A program made the translations under genes and the position numbers. From contig PUNM01000072.1 of the NCBI GenBank assembly GCA_003552625.1, positions 1 through 24,000 of the forward strand: 24,000 bases of DNA, in the 5' to 3' direction. Positions 1,322 to 22,135 of the stretch are shown piece by piece. Below the pieces are notes generated by a model. That model saw nothing but the letters and a program-made list of their open reading frames with translations, was not told the origin of the DNA and searched no databases. Positions within the stretch are counted from its first letter, which is position 1. Each line of letters opens with the position of its first letter. This stretch comes from Ectothiorhodospiraceae bacterium (GTDB lineage: Bacteria > Pseudomonadota > Gammaproteobacteria > Nitrococcales > Halorhodospiraceae).

Positions 1322-1876
1322 CTAGTTGGGCCCTTCTGAGGGCGACTCCAAAAGGCAGGTCAGCTGCTCGGCGCGCATGGGGCGGCCCAGCCCGAAGCCC
1401 TGTCCGCACCTGCAACCGAGCTCCTGAAGGAACCTTTGCTGTGTTGGTGTCTCGATACCCTCGGCGACGGTGCCCAGCCCCAGCCCTTCGGAGAGGTTGA
1501 CGGCGACCCGCAGCGCATGCCCCCGATCAAGCCAGGCTCGGGCCTGCTGTGCGGCTTCGGCGACTACCCACTGGCCCACGCTGTCGATCAGCCCGGAGTC
1601 CTCCAGCATCGGGATGAAAACGCCCAGGAAGATCGTCCCGCGCTCGGGGTGTTCCCAGCGCAACAGGGCTTCCGCGCCAAGTATGCGGCCCGAGGCGAGT
1701 TCGGCTTGTGGCTGGTAGGCGAGGTAGAGCTCGCCGCGTGCCACGGCGTCGCGAAGATCCGCCTGTAGGCTGAGTTGTTCGCGAAGTCGGGCGTTTGCCT
1801 CGGTCTCGGCGGACTTGATCGTCGAGGCACCGGAGGCCACGGCGTGGCCAAGAGCGGCTTCCGCCAGCGCTGACAC
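1322..1876 (-). pseudogene. degenerate, internally deleted EAL-domain (c-di-GMP phosphodiesterase) remnant with an N-terminal hydrophobic segment
   Basis: ORF 1322..2134 (-). It aligns to the EAL domain through ELYLAYQP..GAEALLRWEHP..FIPMLEDSGLI..AVNLS. It then jumps straight to LGLGTVAEGIET..LGCRCGQGF. The central ~120 aa that normally carry the E(I/L)TE, DDFGTGYSS and KxD motifs are missing, although the frame is kept. Codons upstream of ~1876 have clearly lower third-position GC by hand count and run antisense into the pyp start. I therefore end the feature at the GTG at 1876. The true 5' end is unknown. Confidence 0.55.
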
Positions 1877-2042
1877 AAGAGTGAGGATAAGGGATATGCC
1901 TAGGGCGGTTACAGTCGCCGGGCAGGGTGATGGTAGGCAGGCGCCTCGCCCTGTACGCTCTTCAAGTACGGGTATGGTCGCTTGTCGGCGGAGCCGCTGT
2001 GGCCCTCCAGGATAAACAAAGGCGGAAAGGAGGATAATGGGC

Positions 2043-2465
2043 ATGGAGCACATCACCTTCGGGAGTGCCGACATCGAGAACGCCCTTGCAGGACTCGCGC
2101 AGGAGGAGTTCGACCGGTTGCCGTTCGGGGCCATTCAGGTGGACGAGCGCGGGACCATCCTGCGCTACAACGCCACGGAAGGGGCGCTTGTCGGCTACGA
2201 CCCCGAGGCGATGATCGGCCTGAACTTTTTCCGGGATGTGGCTCCCTGCACGGATTCACCAGCCTTCTATGGGCGTTTCCAGGAGGGGGTGGCGCGACGC
2301 GATCTCAATGTCCTTTTCGAGTACACCTTCGAGAAAGAGGATGTGGCCCCATTGCGGGTCAAGGTACAGATGAAACGGGCGCTCGGCGGCGATACCTATT
2401 GGATCTTCGTCAAGAGGGTTCTGCCGTTCGGGCAACCGCGGGCGATGGAGCCGGCAGGCGCTTAG
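2043..2465 (+). CDS. pyp: photoactive yellow protein (stand-alone PAS-fold blue-light photoreceptor)
   Basis: [13 protein letters not shown]...[18 protein letters not shown]...[17 protein letters not shown]...YWIFVKRV is colinear with H. halophila PYP as I recall it, at about 60% identity by hand alignment. Y42, E46 and the chromophore-binding C69 are conserved. The start is set at the second ATG (2043), where AAGGAGG (2027-2033) lies 9 nt upstream. The ATG at 2037 has only a 3-nt spacer. Confidence 0.9.
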
Positions 2466-2477
2466 ACCTGGTTTTGT

Positions 2478-3863
2478 TCACGGCCGCAGAACGACCCGAT
2501 TGCGCCCCCGGCGTTTGGCCTCGTAGAGGGCGGCGTCGGCCCGCTGGATGACGGCCTCGGCGTCCGTTTCGCCGCGATGTTCCGTGACGCCGGCACTGAT
2601 CGTCACCGCCGCGTGGTCATCAAGCCGTGCCTGTTCCACCTGCCCGCGGAGCGTCTCGGCGATCTGCCGGGCATCGTTGGCGGTCGTTTCCGGGAGGAGG
2701 ACGAGGAATTCCTCGCCGCCCCACCGGACGACGAGGTCTGTTTTCCGGCAGCGCGCCTCGATGATCCGGCCGATCTGGCGCAAAAGTCGGTCGCCGTGCT
2801 GGTGGCCGTAGCGGTCGTTGTGCGCCTTGAAATGGTCGATGTCGAGCATGATGACCGCGTAAGGGGTGCCGAGCCGTTCCGCACGGGCCTGCTCATGGGT
2901 CAGGACCGGGTCCAGGCGGCGTCGGTTGGCCAGGCCGGTGAGCGGGTCGTAGTGGGCCTGGCGCTCGAGTTCCGCCTCCAGTTCCTTCTGGCGCGTGATG
3001 TCGTTGAGGTAGCCGAGCAGGGCGACGACGCGCCCGCACTCGTCGTGCTCGATCAGGCTCGATTCCTGTACCCAGCGGTATTCGCCGTCGCGATGCCGGG
3101 TGCGGTAGGGAGATGGCTGAAAATAGGTACGGGGATCCGTGGAGCTGGTAACTGCGTCGGTCTCCTCGCTGACTAGCCGCGCCTGGTCATCAGGATGCAC
3201 CAGTTCGATGAAGTCGCGTGGAGGAGTGGTGAGAGCTTCAGGCCGGTAGCCGAGAATCGGTTCGACGTTATCCGACGCGAAGCGGATCGGCCACCGGCCA
3301 ATGATGGGGTCCCACCGAAAGACCATGGTTGGACCGGTTACAAAGAGACGGCGCTCCCGCTCAAGAGCCAGACGGATCCTGCGCAACTCCAGTTCGTCCG
3401 TGACGATGCCGCTAAACTTTTGAAGGATCCGGAGTTGGCGACTGGACAGCTCCCGGGGGGTCCGGTCTTTGATGCAAATGGCTCCGATCGGCTGTGCGTC
3501 CTTCGACCACAGGGGTACGCCGGCGTAAAAGCGAACAGGCGGTTCTTGGGTAGCGAGCGGATGATTACGGAACGTCTCGCTCTGCCAGGTGTCTGTAATC
3601 ACGAGGGCTTCACCCGAGTGCACGGGGTAGGCGCAGAGCGATGCATCGCGCGGCTGTTCCTGTGCTTCAAGGCCCAGCGAGGCCAGGTACCACTCGCGGT
3701 CACGGTCGAGAAGGGAGATGGCCGCCATGGGCGTTTCGAATACGGCGCCCAGAAGCTGAGCAAGCCGCTGGAACGCTGGCTCGGGTTCCGCGTCGAGCGC
3801 CTCGTAGCGTTCCAGCGCGGCCAGGCGATGCGCTTCGCTATCCGGGGGATTAGGCTGATGCAT
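2478..3863 (-). CDS. GAF-PAS-GGDEF diguanylate cyclase
   Basis: 461-aa ORF. The N-terminal GAF domain shows RLAALERYEALD...ISLLDRDREWYLAS...RFYAGVPL. A central PAS domain follows (FRWDP...LGYRPEAL...HPDD...GEYRW). The C-terminal GGDEF domain has an intact GGEEF active site and an RxxD I-site (RKTD) five residues upstream. Confidence 0.9.
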   Translation of the reverse strand: MHQPNPPDSEAHRLAALERYEALDAEPEPAFQRLAQLLGAVFETPMAAISLLDRDREWYLASLGLEAQEQPRDASLCAYPVHSGEALVITDTWQSETFRNHPLATQEPPVRFYAGVPLWSKDAQPIGAICIKDRTPRELSSRQLRILQKFSGIVTDELELRRIRLALERERRLFVTGPTMVFRWDPIIGRWPIRFASDNVEPILGYRPEALTTPPRDFIELVHPDDQARLVSEETDAVTSSTDPRTYFQPSPYRTRHRDGEYRWVQESSLIEHDECGRVVALLGYLNDITRQKELEAELERQAHYDPLTGLANRRRLDPVLTHEQARAERLGTPYAVIMLDIDHFKAHNDRYGHQHGDRLLRQIGRIIEARCRKTDLVVRWGGEEFLVLLPETTANDARQIAETLRGQVEQARLDDHAAVTISAGVTEHRGETDAEAVIQRADAALYEAKRRGRNRVVLRP

Positions 3864-10605: not shown

Positions 10606-11313
10606 ATGAGCGAGAACCAGCGAGATCAAACGGCCGAAGAGCACCAAGAGGGCCGCGCTGCCGCGGAGCAGCAGCCGCGCCCCGAGCAGGCCGAGGGCAA
10701 CACGGCGGAGAGCGCAGCCGTGGAAGGGACCCTGGAGGACGGGGAAGAGCCCGAAGGCGGTGCGACCGAGAGCCTCGACGATCTCGATCCGCAGCAGCTC
10801 CGGGAGCGGATCGAAGAATTGGAATCGGCGCTGGCGCAGGCTGAAGAGAAAGCCCAACAGCACTGGGATCAACTGCTGCGCCTGCGGGCGGAGATGGAGA
10901 ACACGCAGCGCCGCGCCCAGAAGGATGTGGAGCAGGCTAAGCGCCAGGGGCTCGAGAAGGTCGCCAGCGACCTGCTTCAGGTCAAGGATAGCCTGGAGAT
11001 GGGGGTACAGGCGGCCGAGGATGCGGAGGCCGATCGCGAAAAACTGCTCGAGGGCACCCAGCTGACCCTGAAAATGCTCAATCAGCTCTTCGAGCGTTTC
11101 GATATCGAGGAGATCGATCCGGTGGGTGAGCGCTTCAATCCGGACTTCCACGAGGCGATGGCCACCCAGCCGAGCGAGGATCAGGCGCCCAACACGGTGC
11201 TTCACGTCGTGCAAAAGGGCTATCGGCTGCAGCAAGAGCGGCTGCTGCGTCCAGCCCTGGTCGTTGTGGCCAAAAAGAGTGACGGCGGCGGCTCCATTGA
11301 CGAGACCGCCTGA
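10606..11313 (+). CDS. grpE: nucleotide exchange factor GrpE
   Basis: 235 aa. A long acidic N-terminus is followed by GrpE core motifs: RLRAEMENTQRRAQKD, FDIEEIDPVGERFNPDFHEAM, VVQKGYRL..RLLRPALVVV. Confidence 0.95.
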   Translation: MSENQRDQTAEEHQEGRAAAEQQPRPEQAEGNTAESAAVEGTLEDGEEPEGGATESLDDLDPQQLRERIEELESALAQAEEKAQQHWDQLLRLRAEMENTQRRAQKDVEQAKRQGLEKVASDLLQVKDSLEMGVQAAEDAEADREKLLEGTQLTLKMLNQLFERFDIEEIDPVGERFNPDFHEAMATQPSEDQAPNTVLHVVQKGYRLQQERLLRPALVVVAKKSDGGGSIDETA

Positions 11314-11331
11314 GCGTTTGCTCGGGCGCCC

Positions 11332-11358
11332 CTTGAAAAACCACAGCCGACCCCGCAC
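11332..11358 (+). promoter_or_regulatory. sigma32-type heat-shock promoter candidate upstream of dnaK
   Basis: CTTGAAA (11332-11338), a 12-nt spacer, then CCCCGCAC (11351-11358). The consensus is CTTGAAA-N13/14-CCCCATNT, so this spacer is one nt shorter than I recall for E. coli dnaK P1. Confidence 0.45.
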
Positions 11359-11416
11359 CTAGGGGTGCAGAAGGGCAGAGGCCTGAACCGAATTCAACAA
11401 TTGGCAGGAGCAAGCT

Positions 11417-13357
<1,941 letters not shown>

Positions 13358-13472: not shown

Positions 13473-14630
13473 ATGGCGAAGCGGGATTACTACGAGGCAC
13501 TGGGGGTTTCCAAGAACGCCTCCGACGCCGAAATCAAGAAGGCCTATCGGCGCATGGCCCAGAAGTACCACCCGGACCGCAATCCGGGGGACGAGGAGGC
13601 CGCCGAGCGTTTCAAGGAGGTCAAGGAGGCCTACGAGGTCCTCTCCGATGCACAGAAGCGGGCCGCCTACGACCAGTTCGGCCACGCCGGAGTCGATCCT
13701 TCGGCCGGAGGTGGCCCGCGCGGCTACGGCGGTGGCGCCGGGGGACCCGGCGGTCCGGACTTCTCCGACATCTTCTCCGACGTTTTTGGGGACATCTTCG
13801 GCTCCGGCGGTGGTCGGGGTGGCCGGGCGCGGGCGTTCCGCGGTGCCGATCTGCGCTACACACTGGAGCTCAGCCTCGAGGATGCCGTGCGCGGGACCGA
13901 GGAGCAGATCCAGGTTCCTACGCACGTCGAGTGTGATGCCTGCGAGGGCTCCGGGTCGAAAGCCGGTTCCAAGCCGCAGACGTGCCCGACGTGTAAAGGG
14001 CATGGCGACGTGCGGGTCCAGCAGGGCTTTTTCTCCATCCAGCAGACTTGCCCGCGCTGCCACGGCGAGGGCTCGGTCGTCACCGATCCCTGTCCGAAGT
14101 GCCGTGGCCGTGGACGGGTCCAGGACCGAAAGACGCTCAACGTCCGGATTCCCGCTGGGGTCGATACGGGCGACCGGATCCGTCTTGCCGGCGAGGGCGA
14201 GCCGGGCGAGCGAGGCGGGCCGCCTGGGGATCTCTACGTGCAGGTCGCTGTCAAGGAGCATGAGTTCTTCGAGCGCGACGGTGCGGACCTGCACTGTGAG
14301 GTGCCCGTGGATATCGTGACGGCCGCTTTGGGCGGCGAGGTGGAGGTGCCGACCCTCGATGGGCGGGTGAACCTGCGCATCCCGCCGGGCACCCAGCCCA
14401 ACCGGGTCTTCCGGATGCGCGGCAAGGGTGTCAAGCCTGTACGGGGAAACCGACAGGGGGATCTTCTCTGCCGTATCCATGTGGAAACGCCGGTCAACCT
14501 GACCAAGCGTCAGCGTGAGCTCCTTGAGGAGTTCCAGCAGACCCTGAAGAACACCGGCGGTAAGCATAACCCGCACACCTCCTCCTGGTTGGATAAGGTC
14601 AAGAGCTTTATCGAGGAGTGGCGGCTGTGA
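13473..14630 (+). CDS. dnaJ: molecular chaperone DnaJ (Hsp40)
   Basis: 385 aa. It has a J-domain with HPDRNPGD, a G/F-rich linker and four CxxCxGxG zinc-finger repeats ([32 protein letters not shown]). Confidence 0.97.
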
Positions 14631-15463
14631 CCCTTGGGATCGGCATCATTGGCGCCGCTGGCCGTATGGGCCGGATGCTGGTGGAGGCCAGTCAGCAACT
14701 GGATGGTTTCCACCTCGCAGCGGCCTGTGACCGGGCTGGGGGGAGTGCCGTCGGTCGGGACGCGGGGGAGCTGGCCGGTCTGGGTGCCCTCGGCGTGCAG
14801 GTGGCGGAAAAGGTGACGGAGGCCGTGCAGGCTGCGGACGTGGTCATCGACTTCAGCCTGCCCGATGCGACGGAGCGAGTAGCGAGCGCCTGCGCCGATG
14901 CAGGTCGCCCCCTTGTGCTCGGCACCACCGGTCTCGGGCCTGAGCAGCAGGCCGCCGTGGACCGCCTTGCCGAGCAAGTGGCGGTCGTGCAGGCGGCCAA
15001 CTATTCGACAGGCGTAACCCTTCTCACCGCGCTAGTCGAGCAGGCGGCACACGCGCTCGGCGACTCGGCGGATGTGGAGATCATCGAGGCTCACCATCGG
15101 CACAAGGTGGATGCGCCGTCGGGGACGGCGCTGCGTCTCGGTGAGGCGGTCGCCGGGGTGCTTGGTCGGGATCTTCACGAGCACGCGGTCTATGGTCGCG
15201 AGGGACAGGAGGGGCCGCGGGATCGCCGGACGATCGGCTTCGAGACCATTCGTGCCGGGGATATCGTCGGCGAGCATACCGTGCTCTTCGCGGGGGACGG
15301 GGAGCGTCTGGAGCTTACCCACAAGGCGTCGAGGCGTTCCACATTCGCTTTCGGGGCGTACCGAGCCGCAATGTGGGCATCGCAACAACCCCCGGGGCGT
15401 TACGACATGCGGGATGTGCTGGGAATCGCTGGATCCGCGGCCGGGATAGAGTCACCACGGTAG
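14627..15463 (+). CDS. dapB: 4-hydroxy-tetrahydrodipicolinate reductase
   Basis: ORF 14618..15463. It has the [12 protein letters not shown] Rossmann motif and [16 protein letters not shown] prefer the GTG at 14627, which forms a GTGA overlap with the dnaJ stop and has GAGGAG 8 nt upstream. GTG 14618 is also possible. Confidence 0.9.
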
Positions 15464-15631
15464 CCCCATCGATTCCTGCTCGTAGGTCCGCCGCATAATC
15501 TCGTGGGCGTGCCGCTCAGCGGTCTCGCGGTTGGTGTAACCTTCGCCGCGAGCGATCGGGCTACCGTCGCCGCGGAGGACCACGAAGGCCCAGTCACCGC
15601 TGTCTTCCTCCCGCCACAGTTCGACACGCAT
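15452..15631 (-). CDS. small YegP/DUF1508-like protein (59 aa), not in the supplied ORF track
   Basis: Hand translation of the minus strand gives [59 protein letters not shown]-stop. The pattern W.F.L....G..IA.GEGY......A resembles the DUF1508 repeat. Third-position GC is high. GAGG lies 3 nt before the ATG. The 3' end overlaps the dapB 3' end convergently by 12 nt. Confidence 0.45.
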   Translation of the reverse strand: MRVELWREEDSGDWAFVVLRGDGSPIARGEGYTNRETAERHAHEIMRRTYEQESMGLPW

Positions 15632-15760: not shown

Positions 15761-18700
15761 CTAAGCTGGAGCTTTTGTACCTGCGAGATGCTCCGCCTGG
15801 TAGCGGCGCAGGAAGTAGTCGATGGTTTCGGTGCGGATCTGGATCGATCCGCTCGGCCGGTTCTCGTCCAAGTCCTTGAAACAAAAGTACGGCGTGCCGG
15901 ACTGCTCGATAATCGCCTCGATGGTGGCGTAGATCGGGGCGTCGTGGCCGCACTTGAAGTTCGACAGCTCCACCGCGACCAGGTTGGGGTGGCGCGCGAT
16001 GAACTTCGCAGCCCACAGCTTGCGTGAGCTGTGCTCGGAGAAATCGTGCTTCCAGACATCGTCAATCGCCAGGGCGGACGAGATCCAGCCCGCGCGCACC
16101 TCGGCGCCGAAGAGCCGCTCCAGGGTGGCGGCGTCGCGGGGCAGGGCGTCCTGCCAGAAGATGGGATAGCCCTTGCGCTGCAGCTCATCGAGAATACCGT
16201 GATTGATTCCCGGGTCGTTGTGGTAGGGGCGGCCGAGGACGCCGATACCGATCCGTCCCTCTTCCTCGAGCCGGGCCAGGGTCTCCGCCTGGGATGCCTC
16301 AAGCCGCTGATGGAACGCTTCCAGGGCGGCCAGCCCTCGGGCAACAGCCCGTTCGGATTCGGCGAGGCTGATGCCGAACTCCGGCCCCCAGTCGGCGGCC
16401 ATCTGTTCGGCGCAGAGTGAGGGATCGTCAAGATTGACGAGCGTCTTCTTGAACGCCACCCCGTGCTCGGCGAAAAGGTCTCCCTCACGCCGAAAGGCCG
16501 CGTGGGTTGCCTCCGCGGTGCCGGGGACCGTGGGGCAAGCCTGGGAGGCGAGTGTGTCTTCGAGCGCGCTCGGCAGACTCTTGACCATGGGAAAGAAGAT
16601 GTGGGTCAGTGGCCGCCGTGCGTGCTTGCGAAAGAGCAGGTCGTGGACGTGCGGGATGCCCAGCTTGCTTGGGAAGCAGGGATCGATGCTGCCGCGGTTG
16701 GCGCCTCGTCGGTAGAGTTCGGGGTCCGTGGTGTCGGAGAAGACGATCCCCCGATCCGGAATGCCCAGCGCAGCGAAGTAGGCCTGGAAAAACGGGGCGC
16801 AGGCGTAGAGGTTAAGCACCCGCGGCAGCCCGATCCGCGCATTGCGGCGGCGTTCCATCGCTGCGCGACGGCGCGCGCGTCCCGGCCAGAGCGCCTCCAT
16901 GGCGTTGGGTCGGGGAGTGGGGTCCGCCACATTGTCCACTCGCGGTGGCCGGAAAACCTCCCGGGCGGCCTCATCCAGATGGTTGGGGTTACTGGCGGCG
17001 GTCTCGTCGAGCTCCGCCTTGATCCGCTTCATGGAGGCGACGTCTTCCACTTCGCCCTGCTTGCAGGTGGCGACGATAAGGCGTCGGTACCCGGCTGGCA
17101 GTGGGACGGCGGAGTTTGCCGGGGCGCTCTCGGCGGCTGCAGCTGAGTCTCCGGTGGCTACATCGATGAACGTACGTAGGCAGAGATTGCTGCAAAACCG
17201 GCAACGGGTCCGCTCGTCACGGATCGTGTGGTGTTGCAGGCGACGTGCTCGTTCGATGCCGATAAAGCGGCTACGCCGGCCCTCCTGGTGCAGCCGGCGT
17301 GCCTCCAGGGCGGTGCCGATGGCCCCGGACTCGCCGCAGTGGCGGTGGACCTGAATCTCGCAGTCCGCATCGACCCGGGCGAAGCGGTCCTTTAGGTAAT
17401 CCACCTGCGCTTTTACCGCCGCCAGGTTGCGCTGTGTTCCACCCTGGAGAACGAACCGCGTTCCAAGCTCGGCCGGGTTGGGAATCTGAGCCACATAGAG
17501 CCAGATGTTCTTGGGAAGCACCGCAGCCAGGCCGGCAAGGATCTCGGCAGGTTGCCACCCCTTGCGCTGGAAATCGACGATGTCCGACTGGAGGAAGACC
17601 GCGCAGCCGTGATTGAATTCCGGCATCGCCTCGGCACCGAGTGCCACCTCCGCGAAATCGTCGAGTTCAATCCCGAAGGCGCGGGCCGTCGCCTGGAGGA
17701 AATAGCCGTTGCCTGCCGAGCATTGGGTGTTCAGCCGGAAGTCGCGAACCCGACCGTCACGCAGGAACATGAGCTTGATATCCTGCCCGCCGACATCCAC
17801 GATGCAATCCGTTCCCGGGTAGAATTGCTCGCAGGCGTGGGCGTGAGCCACCGTTTCCACCAGGGCCGTATCGCCGTGGAGTACGTCTCGGATGATGTCC
17901 TTGGCGTAGCCGGTCGTTCCCACGCCGAGCACCTGAAGTTCTGCACCCTGGCGGGTGACAGCGCTCTCCAGCTCGCCGAGCAGGCCGACTGCGTCTTCGA
18001 TCGGGTTGCCGCCGGAGAGGCGGTAGGCCTTGGCGAGCACCTCTGCATCCGGGCTCAGCAGTACGCCCTTGGTCGATGTCGAGCCGGCATCGATGCCGAT
18101 GTAGGCCTGTACCTGTTCGCCAGGCTGGAAACGTGCCGGCGTCCACGCCGGCGGCTGGTATTGCTCGAGGAAGTCGCGGCGCTCGTCGTCGTCCGCGACG
18201 AGCGGCGCCAGCCCCTCGGAGTGCCCGCGCCGGCGCTGCTCGGCCAGCCAGTGCTGCAGCGCGCCCTGCCCGTGGAAGGCGCCGGCCTCTGGATCCTCAT
18301 CGAGTTCGCTCCGGCCGAACTGAACCGCGCCCAGCGCTGCGAAGTACTGGGCCTGATCCGGGACGGTGATCGCGTCCTCGACCGGCTCGCCGGGCGTTAC
18401 ACCGCGATCCTCCCAAAGGTCGCTGATCTGCTGCCGCCAGCACTCCTGCAGGCCCCGGATGTAGGTGTTGGGGCCGCCGAGCAGCAGGACCCGTGGCCGC
18501 AGCGTGTGTCCGCGGGTGAGCACGGAGAGGTTCTGCTGCACGATCGCCTCGAACAGGGATGCCATCAGGTCCTCGGCCGGGACACCCTGCTTTTGCAGGG
18601 AGTTGATGTCGGTCTCCGCGAAGACACCGCACTTGCCTGCAACCGGGTGCACGGTGTGGCCGTGGTAGCCCATCTCCCCGAGTCGCGCTGGTGGGATGGC

Positions 18701-19165
18701 GAGCTTGGCGGCGATCTTGTCAATGACGGCACCGGTGCCTCCGGCGCACTTGTCGTTCATCGCCGGGATCTTGCGTTTGCCTTGTGGGCCAAGATCCTTG
18801 AAGACAATGATTTTCGCGTCCTGTCCGCCGAGTTCGACCACGCTGCCGATATCCGGGTAGCGGGCCTCCACCGCCATTGAGACGGCGTGCACTTCCTGAA
18901 CGAAACGTGCACCGAGCGCCCGGGCCACGCCCCCGCCTCCCGAGCCGGTGGTAAACAGGCGCATGGGTCGCTGCGGTGCCTGGGTCCGAACAGCGGATTC
19001 GATCCGCTCCAGGAAGTCCTGCACCGTTTCCAACTGCCGCGTCTCATGGCGTTGGTAGTCCTGCCAGAGGAGCGCGTCGTCGCGTGGGTCGAACACGACG
19101 GCCTTGACCGTCGTCGAGCCGACGTCGAGCCCGATGATGACGGGATCCTGGTTAACGGCCGACAT
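15761..19165 (-). CDS. fusion protein: two tandem HgdC/BcrAD-BadFG-type activase ATPase domains, a Cys-rich linker and a dehydratase-like (DUF2229-type) domain
   Basis: ORF 15761..19177 (-). The start is set at ATG 19165 (MSAVNQ...), with GAGG 6 nt upstream. ATPase domain 1 (approx. nt 18308-19141) has GLDVGSTTVK, ELGGQDAK, NDKCAGGTG and GKCGVFAE. ATPase domain 2 (approx. nt 17294-18109) has GIDAGSTSTK, DVGGQDIK, NTQCSAGNG and NHGCAVFLQ. The linker CRFCSNLC...ATC lies at approx. nt 17063-17203. The C-terminal domain (approx. nt 15803-16837) has IGLPRVLNLY, DPCFPSK and FKCGHDAP. Confidence 0.85.
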   Translation of the reverse strand: MSAVNQDPVIIGLDVGSTTVKAVVFDPRDDALLWQDYQRHETRQLETVQDFLERIESAVRTQAPQRPMRLFTTGSGGGGVARALGARFVQEVHAVSMAVEARYPDIGSVVELGGQDAKIIVFKDLGPQGKRKIPAMNDKCAGGTGAVIDKIAAKLAIPPARLGEMGYHGHTVHPVAGKCGVFAETDINSLQKQGVPAEDLMASLFEAIVQQNLSVLTRGHTLRPRVLLLGGPNTYIRGLQECWRQQISDLWEDRGVTPGEPVEDAITVPDQAQYFAALGAVQFGRSELDEDPEAGAFHGQGALQHWLAEQRRRGHSEGLAPLVADDDERRDFLEQYQPPAWTPARFQPGEQVQAYIGIDAGSTSTKGVLLSPDAEVLAKAYRLSGGNPIEDAVGLLGELESAVTRQGAELQVLGVGTTGYAKDIIRDVLHGDTALVETVAHAHACEQFYPGTDCIVDVGGQDIKLMFLRDGRVRDFRLNTQCSAGNGYFLQATARAFGIELDDFAEVALGAEAMPEFNHGCAVFLQSDIVDFQRKGWQPAEILAGLAAVLPKNIWLYVAQIPNPAELGTRFVLQGGTQRNLAAVKAQVDYLKDRFARVDADCEIQVHRHCGESGAIGTALEARRLHQEGRRSRFIGIERARRLQHHTIRDERTRCRFCSNLCLRTFIDVATGDSAAAAESAPANSAVPLPAGYRRLIVATCKQGEVEDVASMKRIKAELDETAASNPNHLDEAAREVFRPPRVDNVADPTPRPNAMEALWPGRARRRAAMERRRNARIGLPRVLNLYACAPFFQAYFAALGIPDRGIVFSDTTDPELYRRGANRGSIDPCFPSKLGIPHVHDLLFRKHARRPLTHIFFPMVKSLPSALEDTLASQACPTVPGTAEATHAAFRREGDLFAEHGVAFKKTLVNLDDPSLCAEQMAADWGPEFGISLAESERAVARGLAALEAFHQRLEASQAETLARLEEEGRIGIGVLGRPYHNDPGINHGILDELQRKGYPIFWQDALPRDAATLERLFGAEVRAGWISSALAIDDVWKHDFSEHSSRKLWAAKFIARHPNLVAVELSNFKCGHDAPIYATIEAIIEQSGTPYFCFKDLDENRPSGSIQIRTETIDYFLRRYQAEHLAGTKAPA

Positions 19166-20873
19166 GGGAAGCCTCATCGTGGGCTTGGGTCAGGGGGGTG
19201 GGGCCACGCTGCCGGTGGCCGTGGTTGGCCCGCAGCCGCGCGACGTGGTGCACGAAACGGGCTGCCCGGCTTATGACTTCCCCGTGACGGGGAATCGGGT
19301 AGAGCGGGCTGCGCAGCCGGGGGTGCACCGCGATCCAGCGCTGCAGCTCATCGACTTCCAGGCCCGTCCGGCGCAAGGCTTCCTGCAGCTCCCGGCGGGC
19401 GCTCTCGCGCGCTTCGCCCAGGGCCATCTGGACCCGGGAGTAGGCGTTGATCTCCCCCTCGCCAGCCGTCTCTACGGGCAGGAAACGGATCTCTGGGTAG
19501 TCGGCCTGAACCGCTGCCTGCGCACCGTCGGACTGAGTGGAGGGCATGCACCCAAACGGTTTGAGCGAGAGCGTCATGTGGGCAAGCCGATGGCGGTGGT
19601 AATAGAGGGTCTTGGCGACCTCCAGGTGCCCCTCCCCCCCGGTGATCCGAGGGTTGTAGTAGGGTCGGCCGAGGCGCTCCAGGGTGCGCTGGTCGGTGAG
19701 CGGAGCTGCGCAGTCCCCCAGGGCGCGCCGCATTCGGTCGTACTCCCGGTGAAGCAGGTCGCCGACGCGGTCGATCAGCCAGTGTCGGACCCGGTCGCCG
19801 ATGCGCTGGCGCCAGCGGCCCGTCCCGGACCGGCCTGCACGCCGCTCCTCCAGCTGATGGTGGAGGCCGTGACGCATGTAATCGACCCATCCGGCCACCG
19901 GCTCCACCTGGATCTCCGCCCCTTCGTCCTCAAGAAAGCGGAACATACGGAAGTTGCCGTCTCCCTCGGTGGTCTGGGCCCAGAACTCCCCCGTGATCTT
20001 GACCAAAGGCCGGGGGCGCAGGTAATCGATTTCAAAGCCGCGTTCGATCAGTCCTCGGCACGTTTCCAGCGCGTCGATGCATCGCCGGTCGCGGAGCCGA
20101 TCCAGCAGGCGGGCGGCGTCCGCAGGGTCGCGCAGCGGTGTGGCACGGTGGAGCAGGTAGGCCAGCGCGCCGGGCTTCGGCTCCGGGCGCGGTCGGGCCA
20201 GGGCGTCCTCACAGGTCTCCAGGCACCGTTCCCGGGTGGCCGCGACCGCTTCGGGATCGACGGCATAAGGCCGGGCGCGGTGGAAGACCGCATTGAGGTT
20301 GTCGGCGGTCAGCAGCGCATCCAGGACCGCCAGGTAGAGCCCCAAATGGATGGACAGGCCGTTGCCGTGTCCGTCCTCCGGGTGTCCATCGCCACCGCCC
20401 TTCTTGTCGAAGGCGATGACTCGAAAACCCGGGAAACCGGCCTTTGCCAGAGCCTGCCGGTATTCCGCCTCATACATCCCGAACCGGCAGGGCCCGCAGG
20501 AGCCCGGGATGACGAATGCGTAGCGCTCCGCGGCCTGGGCGCGGCTCAGTCCGCGTTCCTGGCATCGGCGCTCTAAGTGATTGAGCAGCGATCCGGCGAC
20601 GAAATAGATCGGGTTGCACTGCCCGGTATTGCAAAGCTCGCGGCCCCGCTGCAGGTCGGCGCGCTGGGGCATCGGAATGGCCTCGGCATGATAGCCGAGG
20701 CCACGCAGGGAAGCCGTGAGCAGTCGGTCGTGAGCCTCACTCAGGCTGCCGAACAGCAGCGTGACAGACTCCCGCTCTGCGCGCGTGAACGGGCGCTCCG
20801 CCGCCCGGCGGTAGTGGTTTCCACCGTGCGCGGGGGAGCGGGCAGGGCAAGGGTGGTCGTTATCGACTGCCAT
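19152..20873 (-). CDS. 2-hydroxyacyl-CoA dehydratase / benzoyl-CoA reductase-like Fe-S subunit (activase-related protein family)
   Basis: 573 aa. The N-terminal FTRAERESVTLLFGSLSEAH..LRGLGYHAEAIP....GRELCNTGQCNP pattern, GSCGPCRFG and KPFGCMP are typical of the second dehydratase-like domain in large activase fusions. The gene overlaps the downstream gene by 14 nt. There is no obvious SD before the ATG at 20873. Confidence 0.75.
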   Translation of the reverse strand: MAVDNDHPCPARSPAHGGNHYRRAAERPFTRAERESVTLLFGSLSEAHDRLLTASLRGLGYHAEAIPMPQRADLQRGRELCNTGQCNPIYFVAGSLLNHLERRCQERGLSRAQAAERYAFVIPGSCGPCRFGMYEAEYRQALAKAGFPGFRVIAFDKKGGGDGHPEDGHGNGLSIHLGLYLAVLDALLTADNLNAVFHRARPYAVDPEAVAATRERCLETCEDALARPRPEPKPGALAYLLHRATPLRDPADAARLLDRLRDRRCIDALETCRGLIERGFEIDYLRPRPLVKITGEFWAQTTEGDGNFRMFRFLEDEGAEIQVEPVAGWVDYMRHGLHHQLEERRAGRSGTGRWRQRIGDRVRHWLIDRVGDLLHREYDRMRRALGDCAAPLTDQRTLERLGRPYYNPRITGGEGHLEVAKTLYYHRHRLAHMTLSLKPFGCMPSTQSDGAQAAVQADYPEIRFLPVETAGEGEINAYSRVQMALGEARESARRELQEALRRTGLEVDELQRWIAVHPRLRSPLYPIPRHGEVISRAARFVHHVARLRANHGHRQRGPTPLTQAHDEASHVGR

Positions 20874-20942: not shown

Positions 20943-20964
20943 ATGATTCGGCGCGACGGATTGT

Positions 20965-20999
20965 CCGCTGCCGGGGCCAAATGCGCCGCCCGGCAGCGG
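20965..20999 (-). terminator. strong stem-loop immediately downstream of dapE (terminator or attenuator without a U-tract)
   Basis: CCGCTGCCGGG (20965-20975) and CCCGGCAGCGG (20989-20999) form a perfect 11-bp GC-rich stem with a 13-nt loop. It starts 5 nt after the dapE stop codon. Confidence 0.5.
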
Positions 21000-21004
21000 A
21001 ATGG

Positions 21005-22135
21005 CTACTGCGCGAGGAGGCGGTGCAGGATGTCGAAGTAGAGCGCTTCGAGGGTCTCCAGGTCGGCGACAGCAACGCGCTCGTTCGCCTTGTGAATCGT
21101 GGCGTTGAGCGGGCCCAGTTCAACGATTTCGGCTCCGGTGGGTCCCATGAAGCGACCGTCGGAGGTCCCTCCGCTGGTAGAGCGGCGCGGCCGGCAGCCA
21201 GTGCGCTCGGTGACCGCCGCCTCAACGGCCTGGATCAGGGCGCCGCTGCGGGTGGCGAAGGGCCCGCCGGAGTGGCGCCAGCGCAGGGTGTGGGATAACC
21301 CGTGTCCTTCGAGCAGGTTGCTCACGCGTTGCTGCAGGAGTTCCGCCGAGACTGCCGGGGCGTAGCGGAAGTTGAAGACGACCTCCAGGTTTCCAGGGAT
21401 GACGTTATCGGCTCCCGTACCCGCTTGCAGATTGACGATCTGGAAGCTGGTCGGGGGGAAGTCGGCATCCCCCTGGTCCCACTCCGTGGCAATCAGTTCG
21501 GCCAGGGCGGCCGTCGCCCGGTGCACTGGGTTGTCGGCCAGGTGAGGGTAGGCGACGTGGCCCTGCTCTCCATGCACCGTGAGGAATCCGGTCAGGGAGC
21601 CGCGACGGCCGACTTTGTACTCATCGCCCAGCCGATCCTGGCTGCTGGGCTCGCCGACCAGGCAGTACTCGATCGCATCGCCGCGTTGTGTCAGATGCTT
21701 GACGACATGCCGGGTGCCGTCCACGGCGGGCCCCTCCTCGTCGCTGGTCAGAAGCAGCGCGATTGATCCGCGATGCTCCGGGAACGCCTCGACGAACCGC
21801 TCCGCGGCAACCACGAAAGCGGCAACGCTACCCTTCATGTCCGCAGCCCCCCGTCCGAACAGGTAGCCGTCCTCGACGATGGGCTGGAAAGGGGGGTGGT
21901 CCCAGGCCGACTCCGGGCCGCTGGGCACGACATCGGTATGGCCGAGGAAGCAGAACAGCGGCTCCTGACGGCCCCGGCGCAGCCAGAGGTTCGTGACGCC
22001 GTTCGAGGGCAGCCACTCCGGTTGAAATCCCTTGCTTGCTAGCCGCTCGGCGATCCGGGTCTGGCAGCCGGCGTCCTCAGGCGTGACCGAGGGGCGGCCG
22101 ATTAGCTCGCGGGCAAGCTCAACCGTCGCGTTCAC
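21005..22135 (-). CDS. dapE: succinyl-diaminopimelate desuccinylase
   Basis: 376 aa with a GTG start that overlaps the dapD stop (GTGA). M20 peptidase/DapE motifs are present: [37 protein letters not shown] and GGTSDGRF. Confidence 0.93.

Follow-up and report, generated by a model that had tools for sequence, protein, structure and literature searches.

The window examined here (the whole stretch of 24,000 nucleotides, nt), from a Halorhodospira-like genome, carries on its minus strand two adjoining genes, gene 1 of 573 amino acids (aa) and gene 2 of 1134 aa, which in our opinion very likely belong to the PlsA/PlsR–Ger-type family of ATP-driven iron-sulfur (Fe-S) enzymes. We consider it probable that the pair is a split enzyme of this type, i.e., one self-activating lipid ester reductase with two subunits, and equally probable that its function would be the ATP-driven reduction of lipid esters to ethers. 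The observations on which this reading is based are the domains, the alignment of cluster ligands, the folds, homology to PlsA-type proteins, the conserved pairing of the two genes and, in some genomes, linkage to a tetraether synthase. Among the characterised members of the family, PlsA/PlsR and single-gene PlsA convert an ester to a vinyl ether and Ger converts an ester to an alkyl ether (PMC12838417, PMC13159169). PlsAR (PMC12838417) and Ger (PMC13159169) are each sufficient in E. coli. According to the literature, PlsA and Ger are not distinguishable from sequence (PMC13274423, PMC11868695).

The original prediction, made from the DNA alone, placed the two genes among ATP-driven Fe-S enzymes of the benzoyl-CoA reductase/2-hydroxyacyl-CoA dehydratase (BCR/HAD) type and named PlsA/PlsR as a relative. 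The ATPase domains, the ligand alignment and the catalytic folds all support the former statement, and the modules and cofactor cysteines shared with PlsA-type proteins support the latter. It had described gene 2 as opening with tandem activase domains of the HgdC/BcrAD type, each with a Cys pair exactly 39 residues apart, followed by a CxxCxxxC..C linker and a dehydratase-like domain, and this description holds throughout. Thus, the Pfam family PF01869 (BcrAD_BadFG) matches gene 2 in two stretches (E 1.4e-69), designated Act1 and Act2; the NCBIfam domain model TIGR00241, "acyl-CoA dehydratase activase", gives 203 bits against a cut-off of 125; and the sequence matches in the PDB are MbdQ, HgdC, HadI and DCCP-R (7YYL_E). 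The Cys pairs lie at 144/183 and 486/525 when gene 2 is read from an alternative upstream ATG at 19177, which gives 1138 aa (open reading frame, ORF, 15761-19177(-)), and at Cys140/179 (Act1) and Cys482/521 (Act2) in the 1134-aa numbering used here. In phmmer alignments to 1HUX, the Acidaminococcus activator HgdC, these residues fall on MNDKC(127)AAGTG and SSTC(166)TVFAE; MNDKC/GKC of the first domain and NTQC/HGC of the second each map to Cys127/Cys166, an equivalence to which the original prediction had pointed.

Downstream of the activase domains, gene 2 contains the linker and then residues 777-1007 that match PF09989 (DUF2229; E 5e-44) within a putative catalytic module, Red1. An AlphaFold2 model of the C-terminal 495 residues has a mean predicted local distance difference test score (pLDDT) of 80, and the top Foldseek matches for Red1 are the double-cubane cluster protein DCCP, HadB/C and BzdNO. 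In an alignment of 22 sequences with the "BBD" arrangement (2x PF01869 + PF09989), including three PlsA-type proteins from Listeria, Collinsella and Haliovirga, eleven gene 2 cysteines are invariant in 22/22: the four activase residues Cys140, 179, 482 and 521, the four linker residues Cys655, 658, 662 and 701, and the Red1 triad Cys830, Cys877 and Cys1072. The linker probably provides an additional Fe-S or metal site, placed between the activase part and Red1. The BBD core is described as a conserved feature of every alkyl-ether producer (PMC13159169).

Gene 1 has no Pfam match (E up to 10), no NCBIfam match and no useful sequence match in the PDB, nor does a 58-sequence profile of its family find one there. 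Of the profile searches suggested for both proteins, the one with gene 2 recovered the expected families, BcrAD_BadFG and DUF2229, and the one with gene 1 returned no family. An AlphaFold2 model of gene 1, built on the 58-sequence alignment (pLDDT 85; predicted template modelling score, pTM, 0.87), has the DCCP/HadBC/Bzd catalytic fold: among solved structures, Foldseek ranks DCCP first, followed by HadB/HadC, BzdNO and MbdON. The matches of the gene 1 and Red1 models have probabilities of 0.89-1.0 and low TM-scores (0.3-0.44), and because of the latter they are fold-level evidence only. In BLASTP, gene 1 aligns with residues 995-1401 of a 1475-aa Listeria monocytogenes protein of the PlsA type, i.e., with Red2, its last domain (21% identity, E 2.5e-15); this makes gene 1 the equivalent of PlsR/Red2. 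Together with the fold matches, this agrees with the earlier description of gene 1 as a second dehydratase-like subunit. Cys86, Cys129 and Cys442 of gene 1 are universal in the alignment and shared with PlsA-type proteins. All the protein motifs quoted in the original prediction are found in the two translations; of the gene 1 motif CNTGQC, the first Cys is not conserved, and the conserved form is GQCNP. A comparison of the gene 1 and gene 2 families with hhalign, i.e., of Red2 with Red1, gave no signal (probability 0.4%), so that any paralogy of the two modules would rest on fold matches. In the HAD family, each catalytic module is expected to have a three-Cys site holding a [4Fe-4S] cluster with one open iron, and the three-Cys sets of Red1 and Red2 presumably hold such clusters.

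The Listeria monocytogenes protein and the Collinsella and Haliovirga proteins used for comparison come from chromosome pieces labelled as plasmids in PLSDB; plsA/plsR orthologs of Listeria reportedly show activity under anaerobiosis (PMC9702350). Gene 2 aligns by BLASTP with the Listeria protein over the Act-Act part (33% identity, E 2e-100) and over Red1 (28% identity, E 1e-30). The Listeria protein and a Brevibacillus homolog both have the Pfam pattern of gene 2 (2x PF01869 + PF09989). The eleven cysteines of gene 2 and the three universal ones of gene 1 are common to the Listeria, Collinsella and Haliovirga proteins; the window pair thereby shares with PlsA-type proteins the activase Cys pairs, the CxxCxxxC...C linker and the three-Cys sets of both catalytic modules. 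Neighbour-joining trees of the gene 1 and gene 2 proteins are congruent, each with the clade of the window, a sister clade (Brevibacillus and a fused protein, P0156) and a distant PlsA-type clade. The PlsA-type members of these trees are the three proteins just named.

The likeness to PlsA/PlsR extends to the organisation of the system. The same four modules, Act-Act-Red1 plus Red2, are either split, as in the anaerobic plasmalogen synthase of Clostridium perfringens, or all fused, and in both cases they form a self-sufficient unit, of two genes where they are split. A single-gene PlsA occurs in Enterococcus, Lactococcus, Bifidobacterium and Listeria. The original prediction regarded it as unusual that the second dehydratase domain ("domain B") is split off and encoded first. 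The split itself is classical, since C. perfringens has a PlsA of 1004 aa and a PlsR of 420 aa (CPE1195/CPE1194; PMC10087280, Table S5). What does hold is the order, with the PlsR-like gene first, opposite to plsA-plsR of C. perfringens; there, plsA is taken to be first because tagging the first ORF at its N terminus yielded a ~128-kDa band (PMC12838417), which fits the 1004-aa protein. Further differences from PlsA/PlsR are the length of gene 1, ~150 aa greater than that of PlsR, and the lack of an adjacent TetR regulator. From PlsA-type proteins, the window pair differs in its identity of ~30%/20%, its separate clade, an additional Cys126 and another Red2 motif. With Ger, the glycerol ester reductase (T. 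maritima Tmari_0479/AGL49404; D. alkenivorans SHJ90043), gene 2 shares the BBD core as published for it. Both characterised Ger proteins are single fused polypeptides, the C-terminal part of which shows HGD-D and DUF2229 Pfam fragments, whereas in the window pair a gene of its own, upstream and unmatched in Pfam, takes the place of that part.

The pairing is widely conserved. Of the candidates scored against gene 1, over 6800 are homologs with E ≤ 1e-3, and they fall into 1506 clusters at 50% identity. Homologs of gene 2 with 1130-1350 aa and 57-79% identity occur in Halorhodospira, Thioalkalivibrio, Alphaproteobacteria, Phycisphaerae and Myxococcota. We scanned loci at one genome per species and examined the best 80 of at least 600 matches, which come from Thioalkalivibrio, Planctomycetota, Gemmatimonadaceae, many Bryobacterales, Terriglobia and other Acidobacteriota, and also from Dadabacteria, Zixibacteria, Latescibacteria, Poribacteria, Nitrospiraceae, Spirochaetia and others. 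Adjacency was counted on the same strand and within 2.5 kb in those 72 loci whose sequence continues downstream for 1.5 kb or more: in 67/72, across about a dozen phyla, the gene 1 homolog is followed by one of gene 2. The order with Red2 first is accordingly the usual one among these relatives. Other arrangements exist. One fusion (P0136, 1623 aa) joins gene 1 to gene 2 in the order of the window, while P0156 (1579 aa) has the classical order Act-Act-Red1-Red2, and Brevibacillus laterosporus has two genes in the order BBD, then Red2. A third conserved partner gene was considered and rejected, as clustering of the neighbours found none that recurs in more than 10 of the ~80 loci; this fits an enzyme working alone on a ubiquitous substrate.

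Three side observations concern related loci and fusions. In six Terriglobia loci (L048, L051, L067, L068, L074 and L082), a small gene of the glyoxalase/VOC fold lies between the gene 1 and gene 2 homologs (9532-10425 in L074). In a metagenomic protein, P0154 (1271 aa), a Red2 domain resembling gene 1 is joined to a module of the GltD type (Fer4_20, Pyr_redox_2 and a 4Fe-4S ferredoxin domain). This may point to a form of the catalytic domain that is fed by NAD(P)H and does not depend on an activase. In Brevibacillus laterosporus (L009 1320-4714), the pair directly follows two ORFs that by eye resemble lanthipeptide/thiopeptide dehydratase genes.

Two indirect lines of evidence connect the clade of the window with ether lipids. 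The first is a homolog of the radical-SAM tetraether synthase Tes/GDGT-MAS (E 5e-113 to 7TOL), which lies within 7 kb of the pair in 6 loci (Table 1). In three Planctomycetota loci it is directly downstream and on the same strand, and there the pair and tes may form an operon. The second comes from Solibacter usitatus, which makes iso-C15 mono- and diethers and brGDGTs (branched tetraethers of the glycerol dialkyl glycerol type), with abundant mono-, di- and tetraethers, in the absence of ElbD (PMC10087280). It has the adjacent genes Acid_0921 (589 aa, PlsR-like, 20.9% identity to PlsR) and Acid_0922 (1188 aa, PlsA-like, 30.2% to PlsA), which the authors propose to make its ether bonds (PMC10087280). 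The sizes, order and percent identity to C. perfringens of this pair, whose role is hypothesised, agree with those of the window pair and of Solibacteraceae/Bryobacteraceae loci within the clade of the window. These loci have genes of 587 and 1188 aa in the same order, 45% and 57% identical to the window genes, and from these family-level metagenome-assembled genomes (MAGs) we infer that the S. usitatus pair belongs to this clade.

From these observations we infer cluster types, an electron path, a substrate and a product, as follows. The two ATPase domains of gene 2 would pack as a pseudo-dimer, in which the four Cys of Act1 and Act2 hold one bridging [4Fe-4S] cluster. Hydrolysis of ATP would push a low-potential electron onward from this cluster, probably via the four-Cys linker site, to the three-Cys [4Fe-4S] sites in the two catalytic modules, Red1 at the C-terminal end of gene 2 and Red2 in gene 1. 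Red1 and Red2 would together form the catalytic core, like the alpha and beta subunits of 2-hydroxyacyl-CoA dehydratases. The likeliest substrate may be the sn-1 acyl ester of a membrane glycerolipid. The product would be either a vinyl ether, formed by reduction and dehydration (a plasmalogen, as with PlsAR), or, upon further reduction, an alkyl ether, as with Ger.

Several points weigh against the assignment of the pair to lipid ester reduction. The lipid role of the clade would be carried over from relatives outside it, and gene 2 and gene 1 are no more than ~30% and 19-21% identical, respectively, to PlsA-type proteins. In both trees, the clade stands apart from that of the Listeria, Collinsella and Haliovirga proteins. 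Gene 1 has an extra conserved Cys126, part of a CGPC motif specific to this clade and a few others, and its Red2 motif reads GEFWAQTTEGDGN where PlsA-type proteins have GEILVKFHPxANN; either difference could mean a different chemistry. The Tes linkage is seen in just 6 of the ~80 loci, and the likeness to Ger is taken from published descriptions. Among the papers searched, none describes ether lipids or plasmalogens for Halorhodospira, Ectothiorhodospira or Thioalkalivibrio. The clade has many aerobic hosts, whereas most of the characterised relatives are O2-sensitive.

An alternative is that the pair is an ATP-driven reductase or dehydratase of the BCR/HAD type for a non-lipid substrate, either a small molecule as for DCCP or a soluble metabolite, and shares just its architecture with PlsAR and Ger. 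We regard this as rather unlikely, yet as an alternative to be taken seriously. It would account for the distinctness of the clade, whose two proteins are ~30% and ~20% identical to those of the PlsA type, for the separate Red2 motif and Cys126, and for the failure of the literature search to find lipid reports for the host group. In P0154, the module joined to the Red2-like domain is of the GltD type (NAD(P)H/FAD/Fe-S), which suggests general redox use, and DCCP is the best fold match of gene 1. The resemblance to the DCCP/DCCP-R system of Carboxydothermus hydrogenoformans also includes Red1, for which DCCP is among the best structural matches, and DCCP-R, a related ATPase. The PDB sequence and profile searches detected no sequence similarity between gene 1 and DCCP. 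The double-cubane [8Fe-9S] site of DCCP needs six Cys, and only Cys86, 126, 129 and 442 of gene 1 and Cys830, 877 and 1072 of Red1 are conserved, i.e., three or four per catalytic domain. In DCCP/DCCP-R and in E. coli YjiL/YjiM, moreover, the ATPase is a separate homodimer and the catalytic protein a homodimer of one type, whereas the ATPase of the window is a fused tandem. Against any non-lipid substrate speak the four-module architecture with its Cys4 linker, which among the proteins compared occurs only in those of the PlsA/Ger type, and the sharing of all cofactor Cys with them. No conserved genes for substrate activation or transport accompany the pair in the ~80 loci, and the sole recurrent informative neighbour is the tetraether lipid synthase homolog.

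Within lipid ester reduction, which we continue to prefer, a narrower proposal may be made for the clade itself, albeit a doubtful one. The clade could be a functionally distinct ether-forming enzyme, marked by the PlsR-like gene in first place, a long Red2, the CGPC motif with its fourth Cys and an active-site motif of its own. Its candidate role would be that of the missing enzyme for saturated alkyl (di)ethers that feeds Tes-type tetraether (brGDGT) synthesis in Acidobacteria, Planctomycetota and others, and it would possibly be O2-tolerant. In that case ether lipids would be expected in Halorhodospira, an extreme halophile, and published "Ger" screens with BBD-only hits would have overlooked the partner gene that Pfam does not see.

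A classical 2-hydroxyacyl-CoA dehydratase or benzoyl-CoA reductase to which the activator has become fused is a very improbable identity for the pair. The names given to relatives at NCBI, "activator of (R)-2-hydroxyglutaryl-CoA dehydratase" or "CoA activase", would suggest as much, and so would partial TIGRFAM matches to BCR subunits A, D and Q and the folds matching HadBC and BzdNO. The scores of gene 2 against the benzoyl-CoA reductase equivalogs TIGR02259, TIGR02261 and TIGR03192 are nonetheless far under the cut-offs (121 vs 578; 83 vs 313). As the original prediction had observed for the window, CoA-transferase, CoA-ligase and downstream pathway genes are absent, and this applies to the related loci as well. 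HgdABC/HadIBC and BcrABCD/BzdNOPQ/MbdONPQ do share with the window pair the activator ATPase fold, the ligands of the Cys127/Cys166 type and a heterodimeric catalytic fold. The architecture is nevertheless that of PlsA, not of HgdABC or BcrABCD: there is no context of CoA metabolism, and the ATPases are fused to each other and, via the Cys4 linker, to one catalytic domain.

Also very improbable is a role in diaminopimelate (DAP)/lysine or peptidoglycan metabolism, which the genomic surroundings bring to mind. The original prediction correctly placed the pair downstream of dapC-dapD-dapE on the same strand and next to dapB. The plus-strand flank comprises smpB, recN, nadK, hrcA, grpE, dnaK, dnaJ and dapB, and the minus-strand flank dapC-dapD-dapE upstream of gene 1. 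The comparison of the dapB...dapE interval suggested at the time found the pair present in H. halophila and H. halochloris, which share the layout glnD-dapC-dapD-dapE, gene 1, gene 2, facing dapB-dnaJ-dnaK-grpE; elsewhere the pair has other neighbours, amid unrelated genes in T. nitratireducens, a Phycisphaerae MAG and one further genome. No dap gene recurs among the clustered neighbours of the pair in the ~80 loci. Since the context does not recur elsewhere, the pair appears to lie where, in one lineage, two housekeeping blocks that are each conserved on their own meet, and the association, pointed out earlier and retained only in the two Halorhodospira species, does not look functional but is a lineage-specific placement. 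The shared strand and the 131-nt distance to dapE upstream, the convergent orientation with respect to dapB, and the retention of this layout in H. halophila and H. halochloris are outweighed by the unrelated contexts elsewhere, by the lack of recurrence of dap genes, by the hairpin after the dapE stop and by the fact that glnD-dapC-dapD-dapE and grpE-dnaK-dnaJ-dapB are separately conserved blocks that merely abut. The sequence of this hairpin is not kept in H. halophila or H. halochloris, and a scan around the pair for minus-strand promoter and terminator consensus found no match.

Table 1 Coordinates of the gene pair, its predicted modules and flanking features in the window, and of Tes/GDGT-MAS homologs in related loci
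Feature	Position	Strand	Basis
Gene 1: PlsR-like "Red2", putative catalytic Fe-S subunit, 573 aa	19152..20873	(-)	ORF and translation
Gene 2: PlsA-like Act1-Act2-Cys4 linker-Red1 ("BBD") subunit, 1134 aa	15761..19165	(-)	ORF, Pfam, NCBIfam and PDB matches
Gene 1/gene 2 junction	19152..19175	(-)	Sequence: GAGG 6 nt 5' of ATG19165; 14-nt overlap with gene 1 stop
Act1: first HgdC/BcrAD-type ASKHA ATPase domain, ~residues 10-290	18296..19138	(-)	phmmer alignments to 1HUX, 4EHT, 9GAI_D
Act2: second ATPase domain, residues 356-622	17300..18100	(-)	Best Pfam stretch; alignments to 1HUX, 9GAI_D
Linker CxxCxxxC...C, Cys655/658/662/701	17063..17203	(-)	Cys conservation
Red1: DUF2229 putative catalytic domain and C-terminal part, residues 777-1134	15764..16837	(-)	PF09989, AlphaFold2 model, Foldseek
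dapE (M20 peptidase), same strand, upstream of gene 1; context only	21005..22135	(-)	Pfam
dapB, convergent with gene 2, end of grpE-dnaK-dnaJ-dapB block; context only	14618..15463	(+)	Pfam
GC-rich 12-bp hairpin, 5 nt past dapE stop, in 131-nt spacer before gene 1, without U tract	20964..21000	(-)	Fold
Tes/GDGT-MAS homologs near the pair	L018 13437-15566; L024 12963-15095; L034 8483-10282; L053 10465-12549; L037 324-1958; L062 3308-5389		Three Planctomycetota and three Acidobacteriota loci

Homologs of either gene number in the thousands and reach E-values of 0, so that the two are real genes, not chance ORFs. Their sizes, strand, 14-nt overlap and the GAGG 6 nt before the second ATG are as originally described. 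The sequence of the junction, ...ATGAGGCTTCCCATGTCGGCCGTTAA, is consistent with translational coupling; H. halophila has an overlap of 17 nt and T. nitratireducens one of 4 nt, and in most other lineages scanned short positive gaps take its place. The G+C content is 62-68% throughout the window, and that of the pair (0.64-0.68) is the same as that of the flanks, so that composition gives no sign of recent transfer. Horizontal transfer as the cause of the location of the pair was rejected: the G+C content equals that of the flanks, and Halorhodospira and Thioalkalivibrio group together in both trees.

Some further ORFs in the window should be mentioned. Just 3' of gene 2, a 59-aa ORF (15452-15631, minus strand) matches DUF1508/YegP (PF07411, E 6.5e-5, 23.2 bits vs a cut-off of 22); its 3' end overlaps that of dapB by 12 nt, and in H. 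halophila there is a mere 43-nt gap at this place. A 649-aa ORF antisense to dnaK (11135-13084, minus strand) matches PF10712, "NAD-specific glutamate dehydrogenase", with E 6e-202; we take it as an antisense artefact, not a gene, since there is no doubt about the dnaK that it opposes (HSP70, E 1.7e-272). An EAL-domain ORF (1322-2134, minus strand) and a GAF-PAS-GGDEF diguanylate cyclase (2478-3863, minus strand) adjoin smpB and are unrelated to the pair.

Of the features that the original prediction found most striking, the split with "domain B" first is ordinary and the DAP context is incidental. The equivalent pair of S. usitatus is already known, having been discussed in the literature as PlsAR homologs (PMC10087280). 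If lipid ester reduction is the true function, plasmalogens or alkyl ether lipids are to be expected in Halorhodospira and related organisms; our literature search found neither reported for the purple sulfur bacteria that live in soda and salt lakes. E. coli producing plasmalogens grew better in 1 M NaCl (PMC12838417), and such ether lipids, if made, could bear on the adaptation of the membrane to salt. The pair also matters for the way in which the family is surveyed. Because proteins of the gene 1 type have no Pfam model, domain-based "Ger/PlsA" surveys see just the BBD protein, and a preprint survey of sponge symbionts concluded that the second reduction domain is absent from BBD-only Ger hits. 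Among the best 80 loci examined here, including those of Poribacteria, Latescibacteria and Acidobacteriota, the partner gene as a rule lies just upstream of the BBD gene, and an upstream partner invisible to Pfam probably explains the "BBD-only" hits of that survey. Recognition of the pair would sharpen the genomic prediction of which organisms make bacterial ether lipids and the brGDGT proxy lipids.

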